A stretch of 31,921 nt of DNA from a virus (lineage: Duplodnaviria; Caudoviricetes): positions 1-31,921 of IMG/VR virus record IMGVR_UViG_3300017747_000258, one strand, 5' to 3'. The notes beneath the pieces were generated by a model. That model was given only the letters and a program-made list of their open reading frames with translations. It did no database searches and had not been told where the DNA came from. Numbering within the stretch: position 1 is the stretch's first letter; every line of letters starts with the position of its first letter. The position numbers and the translations under genes are program-made. Positions 3,296 to 15,842 of the stretch are shown here, piece after piece.

Positions 3296-4171
3296 ATGTT
3301 TAGGCGTTATCCTCGCGGCATCATTACAGCTAGTTTGCTTACGGGCACTTCGGGTGTCTACGACATAAGCGAAAGCCTCCAAGCCCCTCGGACTTATAGC
3401 GCCGACCTACTTATAATTGCGGGTGGTGGTAGTGGTGGCGGTGGCCCGCAAGGCGGCGGTGGCGGCGCTGGCGGGTATCTTACCTTTTCGGCGCAATCGT
3501 TTACGCCGGGTGATGTAAAGACCGTCACTGTCGGCGCAGGCGGCGCAAATGGAACAGGCGTTGGAAACAACGGGGTTAATTCGTCAGTAACGGGCCTAAC
3601 CGCAGCAGTGGGGGGCGGTGCTGGTGGCCGAAACGGACTTGCTGGTGCAGCGGGTGGTTCTGGCGGCGGGGCTGGGTCTAACTACCCAAGTACCAATCTT
3701 GCAGGCGGCACCGCCACATCAGGTCAAGGCAATAATGGGGGCACCACAACAGATAGTGCTAATTACTACCAATCCGGCGGTGGCGGTGGCGCTGGTGCTG
3801 TTGGTGGTAATGGTTCAACTACGGTAGCTGGGGTTGGCGGTAACGGCCTTGCCTCATCCATTACAGGAACATCAGTCACACGCGCAGGTGGTGGTGGAGG
3901 CGGGAATATCTACGGCGCAGGTGGCGCTGGTGGTACAGGCGGCGGCGGTGCTGGAGGCTCTACGGGGGGCGCAGGAACCGCAAATACTGGTGGCGGCGGT
4001 GGCGGCGCTAGTAACGGTGGAAATACCTTCGGCGCTGGCGGCTCCGGCGTTGTTATAATCTCTGTGCCGACGGCCAACTATAGCGGCGTAACCACAGGTT
4101 CGCCAACGGTTACAACCAGCGGCTCCAACACAATCCTAACTTTCACTTCATCGGGAAGCTACACGGCATGA
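3296..4171 (+). CDS. Glycine-rich fibre/adhesin-like protein A
   Basis: IAGGGSGG, GGGGAGG and AGGSGVVII motifs typical of phage polyglycine-rich domains. Confidence 0.75.
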   Translation: MFRRYPRGIITASLLTGTSGVYDISESLQAPRTYSADLLIIAGGGSGGGGPQGGGGGAGGYLTFSAQSFTPGDVKTVTVGAGGANGTGVGNNGVNSSVTGLTAAVGGGAGGRNGLAGAAGGSGGGAGSNYPSTNLAGGTATSGQGNNGGTTTDSANYYQSGGGGGAGAVGGNGSTTVAGVGGNGLASSITGTSVTRAGGGGGGNIYGAGGAGGTGGGGAGGSTGGAGTANTGGGGGGASNGGNTFGAGGSGVVIISVPTANYSGVTTGSPTVTTSGSNTILTFTSSGSYTA

Positions 4172-4521
4172 GCCATTTTGCAAAAGTCATCGACGGCATC
4201 GTCACCGAGGTTCTGGTCATCGAGCAGGACGTTATCGACACGGGTATGTTCGGCGATCCTGCGCTCTGGGTGCAGACATCATACAACACCTATGGCGGTC
4301 AACACCCCGAAGGGCGTCCGCTGCGTAAGAATTATGCAGGTATCGGCTACGCCTACGACGTGGTGCGCGATGCGTTTATCGCGCCGCAACCATTCGCGTC
4401 GTGGACGCTGAACGAAGATACGTGCCTTTGGGACGCGCCTGTAGCCTACCCAGATGACGGCAAGTCATACGCGTGGGACGAAGACACCTTGTCTTGGATA
4501 GAGGTTCCAAATGGCGAATAG
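4168..4521 (+). CDS. Small Trp/Tyr-rich partner of the glycine-rich proteins (possible fibre assembly/adaptor protein)
   Basis: ATGA overlap; WVQTSYN, RKNYAGIGY and FIAPQP..SW motifs; lies between the two Gly-rich paralogs. Confidence 0.65.
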   Translation: MSHFAKVIDGIVTEVLVIEQDVIDTGMFGDPALWVQTSYNTYGGQHPEGRPLRKNYAGIGYAYDVVRDAFIAPQPFASWTLNEDTCLWDAPVAYPDDGKSYAWDEDTLSWIEVPNGE

Positions 4522-5479
4522 GTGGCCCGGAGGGCTTATCCGTAAAACACCAGTTACCCCGACCACTTCTGCGGCTCCGGGGATTTGGACGTTGGCCGAG
4601 GCTGCGTATTGGACTAAGCAGGGGTTGTGGCCCAAACCGGTAGGTCCGTCGTACTCTGCAAGCTATCTCGTAATTGCTGGCGGCGGTAGTGGCGGAGCAA
4701 ACGATGGTGGTGGTGGCGGGGCTGGTGGCTACCTTACAAGCACCGCTACTCTTACTTCTGGCGCTGTGTATACAGTCACCGTCGGCGGCGGTGGGGCTAG
4801 TGTTTCGGGGTCAACCCTTGGGAACAGCGGTTCTAATTCATCACTTTCTGGGACAGGCGTAAGCGTTACTTCTACGGCTGGCGGCGGTGGCGGCTCTCAG
4901 AATGGAACCAATACAGGATTAAGCGGAGGCTCTGGCGGCGGTGGCGCATATTTCGCTGGCTCTGGGGGATCAGGTACCTCTGGGCAGGGTAATGCCGGGG
5001 GCACTGGCGAGAGTGGGTCTGGCGCTGGCGGTGGAGGTGGCGGCGCTGGTGCCGCTGGTGCTACACCGGCTGGGGGGTCATCAACCGGCGGTGTTGGCGG
5101 TAATGGCCTTGCCTCGTCAATCACAGGCACATCAGTTACACGCGCTGGCGGTGGCGGCGGTGGCGGCTATTTCGCTGTTGGTTCTGCTGGCCCAGCAGGT
5201 GGAGCGGGCGGCGGCGGGAACGGCGGCACGGATTTGGGCGGTTTTGCTAGTTTTGGTGGGTTTGGCGTAGCTGGTACTACTAATACAGGAAGCGGCGGCG
5301 GTGGCGGTGGCCCACCTAATAACTCAAATAATACTAGCGGCGCAGGTGGCTCTGGTGTGGTCATTATTTCCGTGCCAACAGCCAACTACACTGGTACAAC
5401 AACAGGAAGCCCAACGGTCACCACCAGCGGCTCAAACACAATCCTCCAGTTTAATTCGTCTGGGAGTTACACAGCATGA
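4511..5479 (+). CDS. Glycine-rich fibre/adhesin-like protein B (paralog of 3296..4171)
   Basis: GAGG SD; shares GVGGNGLASSITGTSVTRAGGGGGG and a near-identical C-terminal ~45 aa with protein A. Confidence 0.75.
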   Translation: MANRWPGGLIRKTPVTPTTSAAPGIWTLAEAAYWTKQGLWPKPVGPSYSASYLVIAGGGSGGANDGGGGGAGGYLTSTATLTSGAVYTVTVGGGGASVSGSTLGNSGSNSSLSGTGVSVTSTAGGGGGSQNGTNTGLSGGSGGGGAYFAGSGGSGTSGQGNAGGTGESGSGAGGGGGGAGAAGATPAGGSSTGGVGGNGLASSITGTSVTRAGGGGGGGYFAVGSAGPAGGAGGGGNGGTDLGGFASFGGFGVAGTTNTGSGGGGGGPPNNSNNTSGAGGSGVVIISVPTANYTGTTTGSPTVTTSGSNTILQFNSSGSYTA

Positions 5480-6396
5480 TTAAGCGGTATTGGGTTCTTG
5501 TCTCTCTTGGCTGGTGTAGCATGGTGTTCGCTCAGAGCGCGCCAACGTCCTATGTCTACGACACGACGACTACCAGCACGTCGGACAGCACCTCAACTAA
5601 CACCAACACCAACACCAACACCAATACCAACACCTCAACCAGCACATCGACGAACACCAATAACAACGTGAACACCAGCACTTCGCTGAACACGAACAAC
5701 AATAACAATGTTAGCACATCGACAAACACCAACATCAATCAAACTTCTGGGACGATGACCAATATCAACCAGAACATCAATTCTGGTACGATGACGAACA
5801 TTAACCAGAACACTAACGTCAGCACGTCTGACAATACAAACCGCAATTTCAATACGGATGTGAGCAACAGCACCATCAACCAGACGGTCAGCAGCAACAA
5901 CAACAACACGTCCAATAACACCAACCGAAACATCAACAGCGACACGAGCAATAGCACGATCAACAGCACGGCGAACAACGTCAACCAGAACAACAACGTC
6001 AACGTGTCCGACAGTAAAAGCTACAGCGAGAGCGTCAACCGGCAGATAATCGACCAGAACATTAAGTCGCCACCGCCCAGCGCCATCGCGCCGTCAATGA
6101 TGTCCTACAGCCAAGACCTTTGCACCACTGGGCAATCAGGTGCAGTACAGACGCAGATTATTGGCTTGTCGGCTGGCCGCACTGTGCGCGACCAAAACTG
6201 CGAACGTATGAAGCTGTCGAAGACCCTGTACGACATGGGTATGCGTGTCGCTGCTGTGAGCCTCCTGTGCCAAGACTTCCGCGTCTTTAGGGCGATGGAG
6301 ATGGCCGGAACACCCTGTCCATTCTTGGGATTGATTGGCGAGGAAGCCCGCGCCGCGTGGACCGAGAACTCCGAGCTTCGCCCTGTCAAGGATTAA
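5476..6396 (+). CDS. Predicted secreted protein: signal peptide, Asn/Thr/Ser repeat region, 4-Cys C-terminal domain
   Basis: MIKRYWVLVSLGWCSMVFA|Q is Sec/SPI-like; ~165 aa of alternating N/T; Cys in DLCTT, QNCER, LLCQD and TPCPF. Confidence 0.75.
   Translation: MIKRYWVLVSLGWCSMVFAQSAPTSYVYDTTTTSTSDSTSTNTNTNTNTNTNTSTSTSTNTNNNVNTSTSLNTNNNNNVSTSTNTNINQTSGTMTNINQNINSGTMTNINQNTNVSTSDNTNRNFNTDVSNSTINQTVSSNNNNTSNNTNRNINSDTSNSTINSTANNVNQNNNVNVSDSKSYSESVNRQIIDQNIKSPPPSAIAPSMMSYSQDLCTTGQSGAVQTQIIGLSAGRTVRDQNCERMKLSKTLYDMGMRVAAVSLLCQDFRVFRAMEMAGTPCPFLGLIGEEARAAWTENSELRPVKD
5599..5634 (+). repeat. (AACACC)n hexamer repeat encoding (NT)6
   Basis: AACACC x4, then AATACC, then AACACC. Confidence 0.85.
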
Positions 6397-6406
6397 GACA
6401 TACGCT

Positions 6407-7987
6407 TTGCGGGTGGCCCTCCTGCTGGCTTGCGCTACACCTGTATGTGCGCAGACCTACGAGCCTGCCTTGATCCCACCACAAATTCTCGGCGCACCCA
6501 CGACGATGACGCCATTAAACCTTGGCGATGATAACACACGGCAGGTGCCCCTTGGCTTTGAGTTTGAATACTGGGGCCAGACCTTCACTGACGTTTGGGT
6601 GTCAAGCAACGGCTTTGTGTCGTTCCAGAGCGGCAATCATCTGTGCTGCAATGGTCAGCCCATCGACCAAGCACAGCGCAACACAATTTACGCATACTGG
6701 TCAGACATTATCAGCTTCACTGGCAACCCCTTCTATAGTTTGGGCGAAGGGTCCGCACTGTTTGGTTGGTATAACGTCCAAGAATACGGCACGAACAACT
6801 CCAACACGTTCGAAGTTCAGTTGTTCAGCAATGGCAACATCCAATTCAACTATGGGTCTTTGTCTGCATCCGGCGGTCATGACTTTACGGCTGGCATCAC
6901 TGGCCCTGAAGCGGGTGACAATGTTTCGCTCTTTTATGGTCGCAATCCGCAATTCCTGCAAAACCAATCGGGCCTGTTGACCTATGGTTCGCCAATCCCT
7001 GACGAAGTGGCAATCGACTGCAACGCCACACCGCAGCATCCATCCTGCCCGCCAATTTCAGTTGCCATTGATGTGGGTGCACCTGACCCGACTGAAACTG
7101 CTGCTGAAACTGCGCTTGAAGCTGCTGTCGCTTCCGTCGAACAGGCGGCAATGGAAGAAACCCAAGAAGAAGTGCTAATTGAAGATGTTGCCGATATTGA
7201 GCAAGTGCTTGAAACCGCGCAAGAGGCATTAGAAACAGCAGACGCATCCGTTGAAGCTGCCGCCCAAGCGGATGACGCACTCGAAGAATTGGTTTCGGAA
7301 CGTGATTTAGAAGACCTCGGGCCAGATGAAGAACGGCTATCCCCCGACGAAGTCGCTGCGCTTGCCGCAGACGGCACGGACAACACCGCAGAAGGCCAAG
7401 ACGCATCTTCTGGTGAGTTAGAACAGGAAACGTCAAATCAGCTTGATACGGCGCTTGAAGAAAACGGCGGGGTTATACAAGACGCATCCTTTGACGATGC
7501 TGCACAAACCAGCCAATCATCGGCGTTTGAAAACAACTCACAATCATCGCAGGGTTTCGGTAGCTTCCAAATGCGCGTTGACTTCGGGTCGAGCGCTTCT
7601 GGTGCGGGTGGAAACAGTGCTGGCGTAGGTTCTTCACCGCTTGACGCTGCTATTTCGGCTGGTGGCCCTGTTTCGATGACCACCACGTTTGAAATACTGA
7701 ACAATACTGGCGGCGGAAATAGCGCAGCGCCTGTTGCGACAACCGCGTCATCTGAAAAATCAGAAAGTGAAATGGCAGAAGGGCAGAGCGAAACCATTTC
7801 AGCGATGGGGGCCGTACCGGGCTTCACCGCGTACACGCAGGCGTCGTTGCAAGATAGGGCTGACTTTTACGCAATTCGTGATATATACCGCAGACGTAAG
7901 CTGCAAGACGCAAACTTTGAGTTGTATCGACTGATGCAGACAAACGATGCCCGATGGCAGGAGATGGTAGATGAGCAGTACAGATGA
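6407..7987 (+). CDS. Predicted secreted protein with NIDO (nidogen G1)-like domain, acidic linker and distinct C-terminal domain
   Basis: Start uncertain (TTG 6407 preferred; ATT 6392, GTG 6413 and TTG 6335 are in frame). Signal-like MRVALLLACATPVCA|Q. NIDO-type motifs LGDD..VPLGFEFEYWGQTFTDVWVSSNGFVSF, IYAYWSD and NTFEVQL. Also a CxxxPxxPxCP motif and an E/D/A-rich middle. Confidence 0.7.
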   Translation: MRVALLLACATPVCAQTYEPALIPPQILGAPTTMTPLNLGDDNTRQVPLGFEFEYWGQTFTDVWVSSNGFVSFQSGNHLCCNGQPIDQAQRNTIYAYWSDIISFTGNPFYSLGEGSALFGWYNVQEYGTNNSNTFEVQLFSNGNIQFNYGSLSASGGHDFTAGITGPEAGDNVSLFYGRNPQFLQNQSGLLTYGSPIPDEVAIDCNATPQHPSCPPISVAIDVGAPDPTETAAETALEAAVASVEQAAMEETQEEVLIEDVADIEQVLETAQEALETADASVEAAAQADDALEELVSERDLEDLGPDEERLSPDEVAALAADGTDNTAEGQDASSGELEQETSNQLDTALEENGGVIQDASFDDAAQTSQSSAFENNSQSSQGFGSFQMRVDFGSSASGAGGNSAGVGSSPLDAAISAGGPVSMTTTFEILNNTGGGNSAAPVATTASSEKSESEMAEGQSETISAMGAVPGFTAYTQASLQDRADFYAIRDIYRRRKLQDANFELYRLMQTNDARWQEMVDEQYR

Positions 7988-8492
7988 GGAGCCAAAGGTC
8001 TCTTTTGACGAGAGCGGTTTCAGCTTTAAGATTGGTGGCCTGAGCAGCGGCAAGATTGCCATTATCTTTGCGGCCTTTTCGACAGTCCTTGGTGGCCTGT
8101 GGGCTGGCTTCCAAGTGTATCAGCAATTCCTGACCATGCAGGAAGTGACCGCTGCGTATGTACCCCCAGACCTGTCTGGTATTGAAGGCCGCATTTCTGA
8201 GCTGGATGAGCGCGTCACGAGCGTGGAGCGCCTGACCAAGATTAACAGCGAAGCCCTGAATTATATGACGGGCAGCATTTCCAGTAGTGTCAGCGGCACA
8301 CGCCAGACGGTTGACGCAGTGTCGAGCAGTGTCCGGAACAGCGACGCGCAGAACATGGCCATGCAGCGCGCTATCATTGACCAACTGCGTGAGCAGGATA
8401 AGGAACAGCAACGGCGGATCAAGGAACTTGAAACCCAGACTGCGGAACGTATTCAAAAGACGCTGGCAAACCCGCTGGCCGGAAAGGACTAA
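7971..8492 (+). CDS. Single-pass membrane protein with coiled-coil C-terminus
   Basis: Hydrophobic IAIIFAAFSTVLGGLWAGF followed by heptad-like E/R/Q-rich helix; overlaps the upstream gene; AGGAG upstream. Confidence 0.7.
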   Translation: MSSTDEEPKVSFDESGFSFKIGGLSSGKIAIIFAAFSTVLGGLWAGFQVYQQFLTMQEVTAAYVPPDLSGIEGRISELDERVTSVERLTKINSEALNYMTGSISSSVSGTRQTVDAVSSSVRNSDAQNMAMQRAIIDQLREQDKEQQRRIKELETQTAERIQKTLANPLAGKD

Positions 8493-8494
8493 AG

Positions 8495-8980
8495 ATGGAA
8501 GATAAACTGCTTGATGCGCGCATTAAGGCGCTATGGCTTGCCGCCCGCACGATGGCCTTCGTCATCGTTGCAATCACCTGTGCCATGATTGTCGGCCTGT
8601 TCGTGTCGAACGAAATCATCGACAACAAGGACGTCTTCGGCCTCCTTAGCTACGTCATGACTTCGGTTGTTGGCGCTGTGGCTGGCTCATATGCCACGCT
8701 GATGGGTATGAAGGGTGAGTTGGTTCCGCCACCGCCAGAAGACCGCAACGACCCTGAGCCAGAAGAGCCTGCGCCTGCCCCGCTTGACCTGACACCGGAG
8801 ATGGCCCCAAAGGCGTATGACGACCCGCAGGCCACCGTCTTTATCGACGAGCCTGAAGACGACGATGATGACGACATGGAGCCTTGGGAGAAGTACCGCA
8901 ACGATATGCGTTATGACATCAACGGTGATGGCGTAGTGGACGAAAATGACTTTCCTGATTGGCGGAGTGCTGGCAAATGA
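8495..8980 (+). CDS. Two-TM membrane protein (holin candidate) with acidic/Pro tail and EF-hand-like loop
   Basis: Two hydrophobic segments; DINGDGVVDEND at 8915-8950; ATGA overlap with the endolysin. Confidence 0.55.
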   Translation: MEDKLLDARIKALWLAARTMAFVIVAITCAMIVGLFVSNEIIDNKDVFGLLSYVMTSVVGAVAGSYATLMGMKGELVPPPPEDRNDPEPEEPAPAPLDLTPEMAPKAYDDPQATVFIDEPEDDDDDDMEPWEKYRNDMRYDINGDGVVDENDFPDWRSAGK

Positions 8981-9588
8981 GCTTAATCAACCTTCAAAGC
9001 AAATGTGGATGTCATGCAGATGGTGCGTTCGGTCCGGGTACACTTAAGGCAGCTGCGGCTTACTATAAGCTATCACCTAATCGGGCTGCGCATTTCTTTG
9101 CTCAAACGGCGCATGAAAGCGGCGGCTTCAAAGCGTTCAGCGAAAACCTGAACTATGGTGCAAAAGGCCTACGCGGTATTTTTGGCAAGTACTTCCCGAC
9201 TGATGCGCTGGCTCGCGCCTACGAACGTCAACCGCAAAAGATTGCCAATCGTGTCTATGCAAATCGCATGGGCAACGGACCTGAAATCTCAGGAGACGGC
9301 TGGAAATATCGCGGACGCGGCGCGCTCCAACTCACCGGCAGGGACAACTACCAAGCCTTTGCCAACTACATCGGACGCCCAGAAGTGATGGATAACCCAG
9401 ACCTTGTGGCTGGCGAACTGTGCTTCGAGAGCGCGTTGTGGTTCTTCGACCGGAACAAGCTCTGGGGTATCTGCGACCAAGGAGTTAACGACGCTACAAT
9501 ACTTGCGCTGACAAAGCGTATTAATGGTGGTACACATGGCCTAGACGACCGTAAACTGAAGACCAAGAAGTACGCTACTTGGGCGTAA
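8977..9588 (+). CDS. Endolysin, glycoside hydrolase family 19
   Basis: AHFFAQTAHESGGF, YRGRGALQLTGRDNY and TKRINGG motifs; short N-terminal DGAFGPGT peptidoglycan-binding-like motif; ATG at 8977. Confidence 0.9.
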   Translation: MSLINLQSKCGCHADGAFGPGTLKAAAAYYKLSPNRAAHFFAQTAHESGGFKAFSENLNYGAKGLRGIFGKYFPTDALARAYERQPQKIANRVYANRMGNGPEISGDGWKYRGRGALQLTGRDNYQAFANYIGRPEVMDNPDLVAGELCFESALWFFDRNKLWGICDQGVNDATILALTKRINGGTHGLDDRKLKTKKYATWA

Positions 9589-9599
9589 GGAGAACGACG

Positions 9600-9767
9600 A
9601 TGGATTTTAAGAGCACACTAAAACGTAAGGGCGAAGAAACCGCAGGCAAAATACTGCCTATGGAGGATGTGGCCGCCCCACGCTTCGGTACAAAGGTACG
9701 ATTAGCAGCTGCACTCGTAGGTATCGTTATAGTCCTGACGCTAATCTCACACTATCTGGGTAACTAA
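9600..9767 (+). CDS. Small membrane protein (55 aa) with C-terminal TM helix
   Basis: TAAGGAG SD and ATG at 9600; LAAALVGIVIVLTLI; immediately follows the endolysin. Confidence 0.6.
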   Translation: MDFKSTLKRKGEETAGKILPMEDVAAPRFGTKVRLAAALVGIVIVLTLISHYLGN

Positions 9768-14279: not shown

Positions 14280-15842
14280 ATGGATTACAACGCAGCTTCA
14301 CCTATGGGTAACACCCCACAGCTAGGCACCCCTATACCCGGCACTACGGGTGGTCTCCCCATGCAGGGTGGACTTAATGTAGCTCAGAACCCACTGGCGC
14401 AGCAGTTGCAGTCGCAAGGTCGCGGCGAAGACTCCATGCTTGTCCATATGACACCCGCCGAGGTTAACAGCCTCCAAGGCCTAGCTATGGCGCATGGCGG
14501 GTCACTTACCATTAACCCAGAAACAGGTCTTCCCGAAGCGGGCTGGCTTGGCAAACTACTCCCCACTATTCTTGGTGCTATCGCTACGCCGCTTACTGGG
14601 GGTCTTATCAACCCTCTAACTGCCAGCGCCTTGATTGGTGCAGGTACAGGTATTGCCACAGGTAGCCTCAAGAAAGGTCTGATGGCTGGTCTTCAAGCTT
14701 ATGGCGGCGCGGCTCTTGGTTCTGCGGCGGGCCTCAACGCAGGTTCTTTTGGTATCGGTCAGGCAGCAAACGCGGCTAATGTTGCTGGTGCTGCGGGTGC
14801 TGGTGCGGGTGCTGGTGCTGGTGCTGGTGCTGGTGCTGGTGCTGGTGCTGGTGCTGGTGCTGGTGCTGGTGCTGGTGCTGGTGCTGGTGCTGTGGGTACT
14901 AGCACGGCTGGGCTTACTCCAACTCTATCACTAGCCCCTGTCGAGGGTGCGGTTAATGTAACCGGAAATCTAGCTGGCGCTACTAGTCAGGTTGCGGGCC
15001 AAGCTGCTAAAACGGGTCTTGCTGGATTTGCTCAAAACTTCGGTAATGCGGCACGTGCGGGCTTACCCGCCGGTACTCCGGGGATTATCTCCAAAGCCGC
15101 ACCGATGATAGCGGGCATGGGCGTCATGGGTGGCATCAGCAATGCAATGGCACCTTCGATGGGCACCATGGGTTCGGATGGCGTAATAGATAACTCTTAT
15201 GCTGGTCCTTATACTGCGCAACGACGTACAGCTACTTTTGCTCCATCTACCGATGAGCTTCTTAGCTCGTCTAAAGAGCGGCGCTACTTCGACGTAGACA
15301 TGCCTGAAGTCTACAATATGCAGGGGCAAGTTGTGCGTCCGGGTTCCAGCACTGCATCGGGCACGCCGATTATGCAAAACGTTCTGAACCCTAATGCGAC
15401 GAAGGGTCAGAACCGCTACAACCAGATATTTAATCCCTATATGACCGGCGCTGATCTTGGCGAGATGGACATTAGCTATGCCGGAGGCGGTGAAGTTGAA
15501 TTGTCTGATGGAGCCTTTGTGCTCGATGCGCGCACGGTATCTGAAGTTGGTAATGGCAGCAGCAACGCAGGCATGGAAGCTCTTCGCCGTATTGGTGGCC
15601 GTCCGATTGATGGTCCGGGTGACGGAGTAAGTGATAGCATTCCTGCTCGTATAGGCCGCGACCAGCCAGCACGTGTTGCACGCGATGAGGTATTAGTACC
15701 CGCAGACGCAGTGCGCCGCCTTGGTAAAGGCAACCCGAAGAAGGGGGCCGACAAGCTGTACTCGCTTATGAATAAGGCGCACAAAGCCCGCAAGAAAGCA
15801 AAGCGCGGCCAAGACACTAAAGTACGTCGCGGCCTTGCATAA
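14280..15842 (+). CDS. Internal virion/DNA ejection protein
   Basis: Gly/Ala/Met-rich; TINPETGLPEA motif, hydrophobic Gly-zipper segment, (GA)n tract and GPGDGVSDSIPA domain. Confidence 0.65.
   Translation: MDYNAASPMGNTPQLGTPIPGTTGGLPMQGGLNVAQNPLAQQLQSQGRGEDSMLVHMTPAEVNSLQGLAMAHGGSLTINPETGLPEAGWLGKLLPTILGAIATPLTGGLINPLTASALIGAGTGIATGSLKKGLMAGLQAYGGAALGSAAGLNAGSFGIGQAANAANVAGAAGAGAGAGAGAGAGAGAGAGAGAGAGAGAGAGAVGTSTAGLTPTLSLAPVEGAVNVTGNLAGATSQVAGQAAKTGLAGFAQNFGNAARAGLPAGTPGIISKAAPMIAGMGVMGGISNAMAPSMGTMGSDGVIDNSYAGPYTAQRRTATFAPSTDELLSSSKERRYFDVDMPEVYNMQGQVVRPGSSTASGTPIMQNVLNPNATKGQNRYNQIFNPYMTGADLGEMDISYAGGGEVELSDGAFVLDARTVSEVGNGSSNAGMEALRRIGGRPIDGPGDGVSDSIPARIGRDQPARVARDEVLVPADAVRRLGKGNPKKGADKLYSLMNKAHKARKKAKRGQDTKVRRGLA
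14808..14891 (+). repeat. Perfect (GGTGCT)14 in-frame microsatellite encoding (Gly-Ala)14
   Basis: 84 nt of exact hexamer repeat; degenerate copies from 14784. Confidence 0.95.

Follow-up and report, generated by a model that had tools for sequence, protein, structure and literature searches.

What purpose is served, in a tailed phage, by a set of closely packed genes whose products appear to be directed to the envelope of the host, and do they belong to lysis, to the virion or to something else? The question is raised by a locus in the IMG/VR virus record IMGVR_UViG_3300017747_000258 (Caudoviricetes); the whole stretch of 31,921 nucleotides (nt) analysed here is called the window. A first-pass annotation had described four tightly coupled open reading frames (ORFs) between upstream genes and the endolysin gene; all four are present and coupled as it said, and we call them A, B, C and D (Table 1). 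The answer that we prefer, with a probability of about 0.45, is that A, B and C may form an envelope-spanning platform, in which A would act as an oligomeric, autotransporter-like outer-membrane anchor and C as an inner-membrane brace, while B would display an adhesin-like head on the infected cell.

Conservation and spread of the A-B-C trio

The trio A-B-C is a real, widespread and uncharacterised three-gene module. Related loci were counted for gene order if at least 3.5 kb lay downstream of A, and C was recognised as a membrane-coil gene ending in NP[LMI] and placed after a long exported gene (B). The suspected co-occurrence of A, B and C is borne out by their neighbourhoods, since the order A-B-C is kept in 55 of 55 IMG/VR loci from a first scan; it is also found in 11 of 12 GenBank records, in 41 of 47 loci from a roseophage-like scan, in 31 of 43 from a pelagiphage-like scan and in none of six from an RSP15-like scan. 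Seven of the 12 pelagiphage-like exceptions were inspected and all seven have B and C behind one to four inserted genes; all six roseophage-like exceptions were inspected, and C is present in five (behind inserted genes or missed gene calls). With the A domain as query, 597 of 600 stretches were confirmed in one scan, and from this query alone we estimate some 2300 IMG/VR stretches, so that the module is very common in aquatic phages; a protein search with A returned 4061 matches and a profile search 3184 clusters at 50% identity. The trio spans podo-, sipho- and T4-like phages (HTVC115P, HTVC023P, HTVC033P, HTVC202P, Baldr, the T4-like Mosig, an Autographiviridae fosmid, CRP-207 and CRP-810), and the named hosts are all Alpha- or Betaproteobacteria. 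Because it is present in cultured SAR11 and Roseobacter phages, it can be put to the test now.

The unit is one of three genes and not of four, as had been claimed: D was rejected as a fourth member, because it occurs only in 29 loci, every one of which belongs to the closest group, of 36 loci. For C, homology extends across groups (HHalign 95–97% in two of three pairs, 17% in the third), and the C-terminal segment of B is conserved in the group of the window. When the window (5476–9617) is set against three other loci (L341, L344 and L346), parts of the A-B-C-D-endolysin block are 72–82% identical in DNA while little or nothing else is common, which points to transfer of the block as a block. 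Distance correlations among A, the tail of B and C in 27 loci (Spearman 0.62–0.68) were not taken to prove co-evolution, because common ancestry would lead to the same result.

As to existing names, the A family is shared with PHROG 20531 and with proteins of named phages (HTVC023P gp45, gp46 and gp48; HTVC202P gp24–26; Mosig 00202–00200; RSP15 ORF122), and the gene order of the pelagiphages HTVC023P and HTVC202P is that of the trio. All are annotated as unknown, and PHROG 20531 is centred on a solo form of A. No paper on the trio or the A domain turned up in literature searches that had subscription journals and supplementary files outside their scope. In one roseophage-group locus (L091:5779–6534) CRP810_gp53 is named ‘OmpA family protein’ in GenBank and only the A domain is seen in it; in another record (MW202481; L087:5857–7342) the A gene is unannotated and B is called TonB. 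A staphylococcal-nuclease-like gene often neighbours the trio (L215:7510–7917 and 50 other loci), and its representative has a hydrophobic start.

Are these proteins exported, as the first-pass annotation held for A and B? Signal-peptide calls were made by eye and with a crude rule, not with SignalP. Relatives of A and B have the same short basic-hydrophobic-Ala-Gln starts, and the rule is passed by 91 of 107 intact A representatives (most of the misses being truncated gene calls) and by 50 of 64, 79 of 83 and 38 of 38 members of B clusters. Among the controls it is passed by none of 80 endolysins and none of 36 terminases, but by 16 of 25 members of one tail-type cluster. Together with the conserved linkage and the presence across tail types, the signal-like starts of A and B favour an exported, non-virion-like envelope module. 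It is, by contrast, very improbable that A, B and C are fibres or other ordinary parts of the virion, a view suggested by the window, where the trio follows glycine-rich genes within the structural operon: against it stand the signal-peptide-like starts, the occurrence of the same trio across phages of different tail types and, as far as the accessible passages of PMC8504454 go, the absence of a solo homologue, RsoM2USA_147, from the 10 major virion bands, only abundant bands having been analysed there.

The predicted hairpin domain of A and its bacterial homologues

Pfam searches of A, B, C and D gave no match above cut-off, the only match below it being to a coil for C, and no PDB sequence was matched by the A profile. 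An AlphaFold2 model of A residues 169–306, built from 142 sequences (mean predicted local distance difference test score, pLDDT, 80; predicted template modelling score, pTM, 0.58), has a hairpin between two invariant cysteines, followed by four helices. Compared with solved structures, the monomer model gave a best Foldseek E of 0.99 and a best VIA Z of 3.5, the latter for the helical part only; a further structure search returned only uncharacterised phage relatives, and an Atlas search only unnamed viral clusters. Such a weak fold match does not show that the fold is new. The column profile of the hairpin is amphipathic: alignment positions 51, 53, 55, 62, 64 and 66 are 91–100% Gly, Ala or Ser and position 57 is 91% Gln, positions 56, 61, 63 and 69 are 73–99% large hydrophobic, and charges are nearly absent from positions 50–66. 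In bacterial copies of A, F61 is conserved at 85% and W69 at 94%.

Mean-field covariation analysis of 394 sequences (effective number, Neff, 148) recovers the register of this hairpin (Q57-G62, V56-L63, Q52-R67 and T50-V69), with a weaker second register two residues off. It also gives an antiparallel band between the preceding linker and strand 1 (A35-Q57, P31-Q59 and M41-T49), with contacts to G62 and S64. The mean z of this band is 0.74, a value reached by none of 2223 overlapping control bands, and lies between 0.46 and 0.69 in six half samples; the mean best z of the linker is 2.5 with the small (Gly/Ser) face of the hairpin versus 1.6 with the other face. Given this antiparallel band, the linker is predicted to begin at the hairpin tip on the Gly/Ser side, where the N-terminal tract would accordingly lie as well; both the hairpin fold and the path of the linker are predictions of the model and the covariation. 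The tract itself counts 53 Asn, 39 Thr and 29 Ser in 162 residues, and its length in relatives ranges from about 0 to several hundred residues, collagen taking its place in some bacterial homologues. No A longer than 536 amino acids (aa) came out of a length-directed search, which was insensitive, since one locus (L002) holds an A of 628 aa. In the roseophage group, a small gene just before A is a paralogue of its helical half (L091:5558–5821, L092:886–1101 and L090, about 1710–1940); it begins with a lipoprotein-like signal in L091 and L092 and weakly matches phrog_20531.

What is new here is that the four-Cys domain of A is also found alone in proteobacterial chromosomes, with collagen or Asn-rich tracts before it and with OmpA fusions. 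A scan of GTDB with a solo-type A alignment confirmed 145 of 251 stretches, from which 79 loci were taken, nearly all titled Alpha- or Betaproteobacteria (a few metagenome-assembled genomes are labelled Flavobacteriaceae or archaeon, labels that were left unchecked). Seventy-five of them contain 83 A genes; in these 75 loci the B head, the B tail and D have no match, and C has one, on an unrelated strand. Eleven of the 83 genes have a C-terminal OmpA-like fusion of the peptidoglycan-binding type, joined by a Pro-rich linker (Pfam confirms two of them, at E values of about 1e-21 to 1e-23), and 19 have Gly-X-Y runs (one confirmed by Pfam as Collagen). Separately, two to three distinct genes for OmpA domains lie a few kb from a solo A in L278, L292, L296 and L298. 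Solo A genes are also found in Ralstonia, Achromobacter and Agrobacterium phages, and in the four surroundings inspected (RSP15, JWAlpha, RSL1 and RsoM2USA) they lie among non-lysis genes.

Four of the A-OmpA fusions carry 68–86 Gly-X-Y triplets, in interrupted runs that end at the linker. Collagen rises by 0.29 nm per residue and the periplasm is about 20–25 nm wide; with that rise, the rod would be about 60–75 nm long. Too long to stand in the periplasm, and tied to peptidoglycan by OmpA, it must cross the outer membrane or lie flat, and A is the only candidate for a crossing element in these proteins. OmpA fusions recur at the C-terminal end of A, as do membrane helices, which end 16 of 148 A representatives, so that, on the sequences, the C-terminal pole appears to be repeatedly tied inward and the N-terminal pole to carry the fibre. 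Eight bacterial loci have a tandem A pair of which the second gene is an OmpA fusion; collagen-A followed by A-OmpA is seen in L305–L311 and L313, an arrangement that suggests mixed oligomers.

These homologues bear directly on a different view, namely that the trio builds a periplasmic scaffold and does not reach through the outer membrane. A would then be a soluble trimerisation hub with a hydrophobic hairpin core, C its anchor, and the head of B would bind peptidoglycan or incoming phage parts, so as to block superinfection or time lysis. The hydrophobic residues of A do gather at the hairpin tip, a trimer is implied by collagen as a partner, the OmpA and C-terminal helix fusions are periplasmic anchors, and lysis genes often adjoin the trio. 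We nevertheless hold this view to be unlikely, because collagen and OmpA in one chain are far longer than the periplasm is wide, because collagen begins a few residues from the linker, an arrangement that speaks for linkers along the axis and for hydrophobic faces that point outward, and because there are bacterial copies of A with a regular I/V-L-I-W outward face.

A further view is that A and B accumulate in the periplasm until lysis frees them, the Asn/Thr tract of A polymerising into fibres and B serving as decoy or glue. It would agree with the richness of A tracts in Asn, Thr and Gln, with the existence of phage curli in the same host groups (accessible parts of PMC9599517) and with the finding that none of 50 A-bearing records has CsgG (PF03783), which was present in 4 of 14 control genomes, a comparison without a base rate. 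However, the tract is nearly gone in some members, C is a membrane protein that is always kept, and OmpA fusions bind A to the cell wall; this outcome is thus improbable. Among published systems, curli come closest as a precedent for an envelope module carried by phages: according to the accessible parts of PMC9599517 and PMC9004378, in which the trio is unmentioned, they are carried by pelagiphages, podo- and myoviruses, and aggregation or lysis are their proposed roles. Both are multi-gene exported modules common to podo- and myoviruses of aquatic Proteobacteria, but the trio comes without CsgG in those 50 records, shares no homology with curli in any part and has an inner-membrane coil. A Pfam scan of the window genes gave no CsgG match either, and the 24-kb stretches of HTVC008M and Melnitz that match the Mosig site list no curli gene and give no match to A, the B tail or C.

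The head of B, the lysis neighbourhood and the proposed platform

If A is the anchor, what would be displayed? A variable head, a charged stalk and a conserved foot are the layout of a displayed ligand-binding protein, and B has all three. Its stalk carries a net charge of -43 over 175 residues, and all 135 B proteins scored are net acidic, with a median of -0.11 per residue. The head is modelled as all-beta (pLDDT 88) and has no clear fold match among solved structures (Foldseek and VIA, best Z 5.6). Its profile matches residues 50–188 of RemA (chain 8gl6_D) at an E of 2e-13. RemA of Flavobacterium johnsoniae is a gliding adhesin, whose C-terminal domain is the subject of PMC10994853; judging from the accessible passages of that paper, the part matched by B is probably not resolved in its structure. 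The NIDO likeness proposed for B holds at the level of the family, 9 of 26 members matching PF06119 weakly (best E 5.8e-5), but not for the protein of the window, which has no Pfam match; the Atlas feature score of B is 0.95 to clusters in which 12–14% carry NIDO. The head type of the window is found in 54 of 130 complete B proteins and the other 76 fall into seven clusters; even L030–L032, which are close relatives and agree in C, D and endolysin, have a different head. B differs from RemA and NIDO proteins in that only its head matches, followed by an acidic stalk and a C-terminal segment of its own, and in that relatives have unrelated heads. That segment has at least 1434 relatives, the best 120 of which are without a Pfam match. 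Adhesin display, one of several functions floated in the first-pass annotation, thus gains support from the swappable RemA/NIDO-like head and from the bacterial A proteins fused to collagen and OmpA.

Another of those functions was the replacement of spanins. Spanins of the lambda Rz/Rz1 type consist of an inner-membrane coil protein and an outer-membrane lipoprotein. C, of the inner-membrane type with an N-terminal helix and a predicted periplasmic coil, has the layout of the former, including a conserved C-terminus, and A is rich in Pro and Cys; a non-canonical pair could be envisaged, with C in the inner and A in the outer membrane fusing the two after the endolysin has acted, and with B as an accessory. 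Endolysin clusters lie near the trio in 26 of 36, 19 of 45 and 47 of 80 loci of three groups, and 45 of 50 whole records lack phrog_812. Five near-complete relatives have no convincing lipoprotein o-spanin by a rule that found a candidate in Melnitz and missed a short-signal lipoprotein in G035; in the window likewise, as had been noted before, no o-spanin is evident, no lipobox ORF being found by this rule, which misses short signals, in a record that is about 51% complete. We find such a pair quite unlikely all the same. An Rz/Rz1-like pair, named by PHROGs, lies directly beside the trio in one locus (L045), i-type spanin genes adjoin it in 11 and o-type genes in 7 loci of a group of 45, and phrog_812 is found in 5 of the 50 whole records and in 3 of 23 near-complete ones. 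No clear alignment joins C to the neighbouring i-spanins (HHalign 17% or less); in the window it has no PHROG match, and one relative matches phrog_7686 at an E of 0.0075, among generic coil matches. In place of a lipoprotein partner the trio has two large exported proteins; A has no lipobox and occurs solo in bacterial chromosomes and away from lysis regions, and the large variable head of B is not needed for fusion. Because classical spanins adjoin A-B-C in some relatives, the trio is not simply a spanin substitute; to judge from these gene neighbourhoods, it neither needs nor excludes them.

D is a small two-helix membrane protein that overlaps the endolysin start. It has no Pfam or PHROG match, holin families included, aligns over 26 columns with another two-helix family found before endolysins (93%) and keeps its DxNxDG loop in 29 of 29 loci; by position and topology only, it is best read as a lineage-specific holin candidate. 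Two-helix membrane proteins with an EF-hand-like loop also follow the trio in other phages (L056:8745–9071 and L090:3870–4226), at the N-terminus there and at the C-terminus in D, and such proteins are possibly calcium-responsive holin candidates that arose twice.

How might the preferred platform of A, B and C be assembled? A and B begin with signal-peptide-like sequences and C has one membrane helix, as read from the sequences. Several hairpins of A are predicted to line up next to one another, turning the hydrophobic face outward and the Gly/Ser face inward; each PxxSAxAP linker would run up the Gly/Ser face, and the N-terminal tract would leave at the tip in the manner of autotransporter passengers. 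The helical base would point to the periplasm and be tied by OmpA in bacteria, by a C-terminal helix in some phages and by the coil and NPL end of C in phages with the trio. In the weakest step, B would be held by its C-terminal segment, its head and acidic stalk extending to the surface. Late in infection, such a platform would probably serve to attach infected cells, or the debris left by lysis, to new hosts or to particles; alternatively, a coating against grazers and other phages may be produced. Insertion of A into the outer membrane as an oligomer, binding among the three proteins, surface exposure and the benefit to the phage are all putative.

Trimeric autotransporters (type Vc, such as YadA and Hia) have a C-terminal anchor of four strands per chain, whose small-residue lumen is passed by the linker. 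A resembles them in its signal-peptide-like start (by the crude rule), in its variable N-terminal fibrous passenger and in its small conserved C-terminal domain, and would likewise supply some of the strands of a common barrel, through whose lumen, lined by small residues, the linker would pass. It differs in having two strands followed by helices instead of four strands that end the protein, in lacking a terminal aromatic beta-signal, in its four Cys, in the helical base after the hairpin and the periplasmic domains that may follow it, and in showing no sequence match and, as a monomer model, no clear fold match; in addition, phages add B and C. Only tentatively, as a possibility, do we propose that the A domain represents a minimal unit of the autotransporter type that has not been described before. 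Its two-strand hairpin would oligomerise to make an outer-membrane barrel and would thread its own passenger (collagen or an Asn-rich fibre) to the surface; Proteobacteria would use it alone or tied to peptidoglycan by OmpA, and aquatic phages, with an inner-membrane coil and a swappable adhesin, as a three-part surface-redecorating machine.

Several points weigh against the platform. The monomer model of A leaves the linker unstructured (pLDDT 55–74, pTM 0.58), and the outward face of phage A is only partly hydrophobic (10–43% large hydrophobic at positions 50, 52, 54, 65 and 67), unlike a typical membrane strand. The covariation band was picked after the top pairs had been seen, in a shallow family with few variable positions. 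Collagen has three chains, and three hairpins make six strands, too few for a pore, so that a hexamer or a mixed oligomer must be assumed. B of the roseophage group is unrelated to B of the window (HHalign 0.2%), and its alignment with the pelagiphage C-terminus is weak (HHalign 9%); in the literature covered the lectin activity of RemA is not mapped to the region matched by B; and B would need a route across the outer membrane. The frequent neighbourhood of lysis genes also fits a role inside the envelope, and the sequence TATAAATA, a point in favour in that it is found 39–201 nt upstream of A in several loci including that of Mosig, is common by chance in AT-rich loci. Should adhesin display prove true, lytic phages would routinely alter the sticking, sinking, host encounter and grazing of infected cells, and Gram-negative bacteria would have a further means of displaying proteins at the surface, one whose anchor is very small; should the trio be spanin-like or periplasmic, it would help to explain how the envelope is dealt with by the many aquatic phages in which no spanin is recognised.

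Layout of the locus and its surroundings

Table 1. Features of the A-B-C-D-endolysin region of the window
Feature	Position	Strand	Description
Gene A	5476–6396	+	306 aa; signal-peptide-like aa 1–19, N/T/S tract, conserved linker, Cys-clamped beta-hairpin, helical base; phrog_20531 E 6e-14
A low-complexity tract	5560–6045	+	aa 29–190
A core	6070–6201	+	PPPSAIAP linker from aa 199; amphipathic hairpin Cys216–Cys242; predicted strands aa 217–225 and 230–238; AlphaFold2 model, column profile, covariation
Gene B	6407–7987	+	526 aa; short signal-peptide-like start, NIDO/RemA-like head, acidic stalk, Tyr-rich conserved C-terminal segment
B head	6452–7069	+	all-beta domain, swappable among relatives
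B C-terminal conserved segment	7721–7984	+	GFxAY..WY..IY..DN..QY, from alignment
Gene C	7971–8492	+	173 aa; one membrane helix aa 29–47, coiled-coil-like body, terminal NPL motif aa 167–169
Gene D	8495–8980	+	161 aa; hydrophobic segments 19–37 and 47–65; acidic/Pro tail; DINGDG loop (DxNxDG)
GH19 endolysin	8977–9588	+	Pfam PF00182 E 1.6e-9; phrog_181 E 1e-61
55-aa protein	9600–9767	+	C-terminal membrane helix; present in close relatives only

In the window the + strand carries structural genes of podovirus type, the - strand primase and helicase-like genes. The cassette lies between three genes at 3296–5479, two of them glycine-rich, and the GH19 endolysin gene. Packing is tight throughout: gene 4511–5479 and A share 4 nt, A and B are 10 nt apart, B and C overlap by 17 nt, a gap of 2 nt separates C from D, and D overlaps the endolysin start at 8977. 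The start codon of B is TTG in a frame open from 6335, and relatives (L011, L014 and L029) back a start right after the stop of A. A scan for promoters and terminators stayed at chance level.

As to the surroundings, a 520-aa protein at 14280–15842 contains Gly-Ala repeats in an internal run and matches no family; it precedes a small gene, whose product we take to be acetyltransferase-like, and then ejection-type proteins. The genes just upstream of the cassette had been called fibre genes and turn out to encode glycine-rich proteins of unknown function (PF21722, phrog_2295); the two glycine-rich genes, at 3296–4171 and 4511–5479, are paralogues with nearly identical C-termini on either side of a gene for 117 aa.

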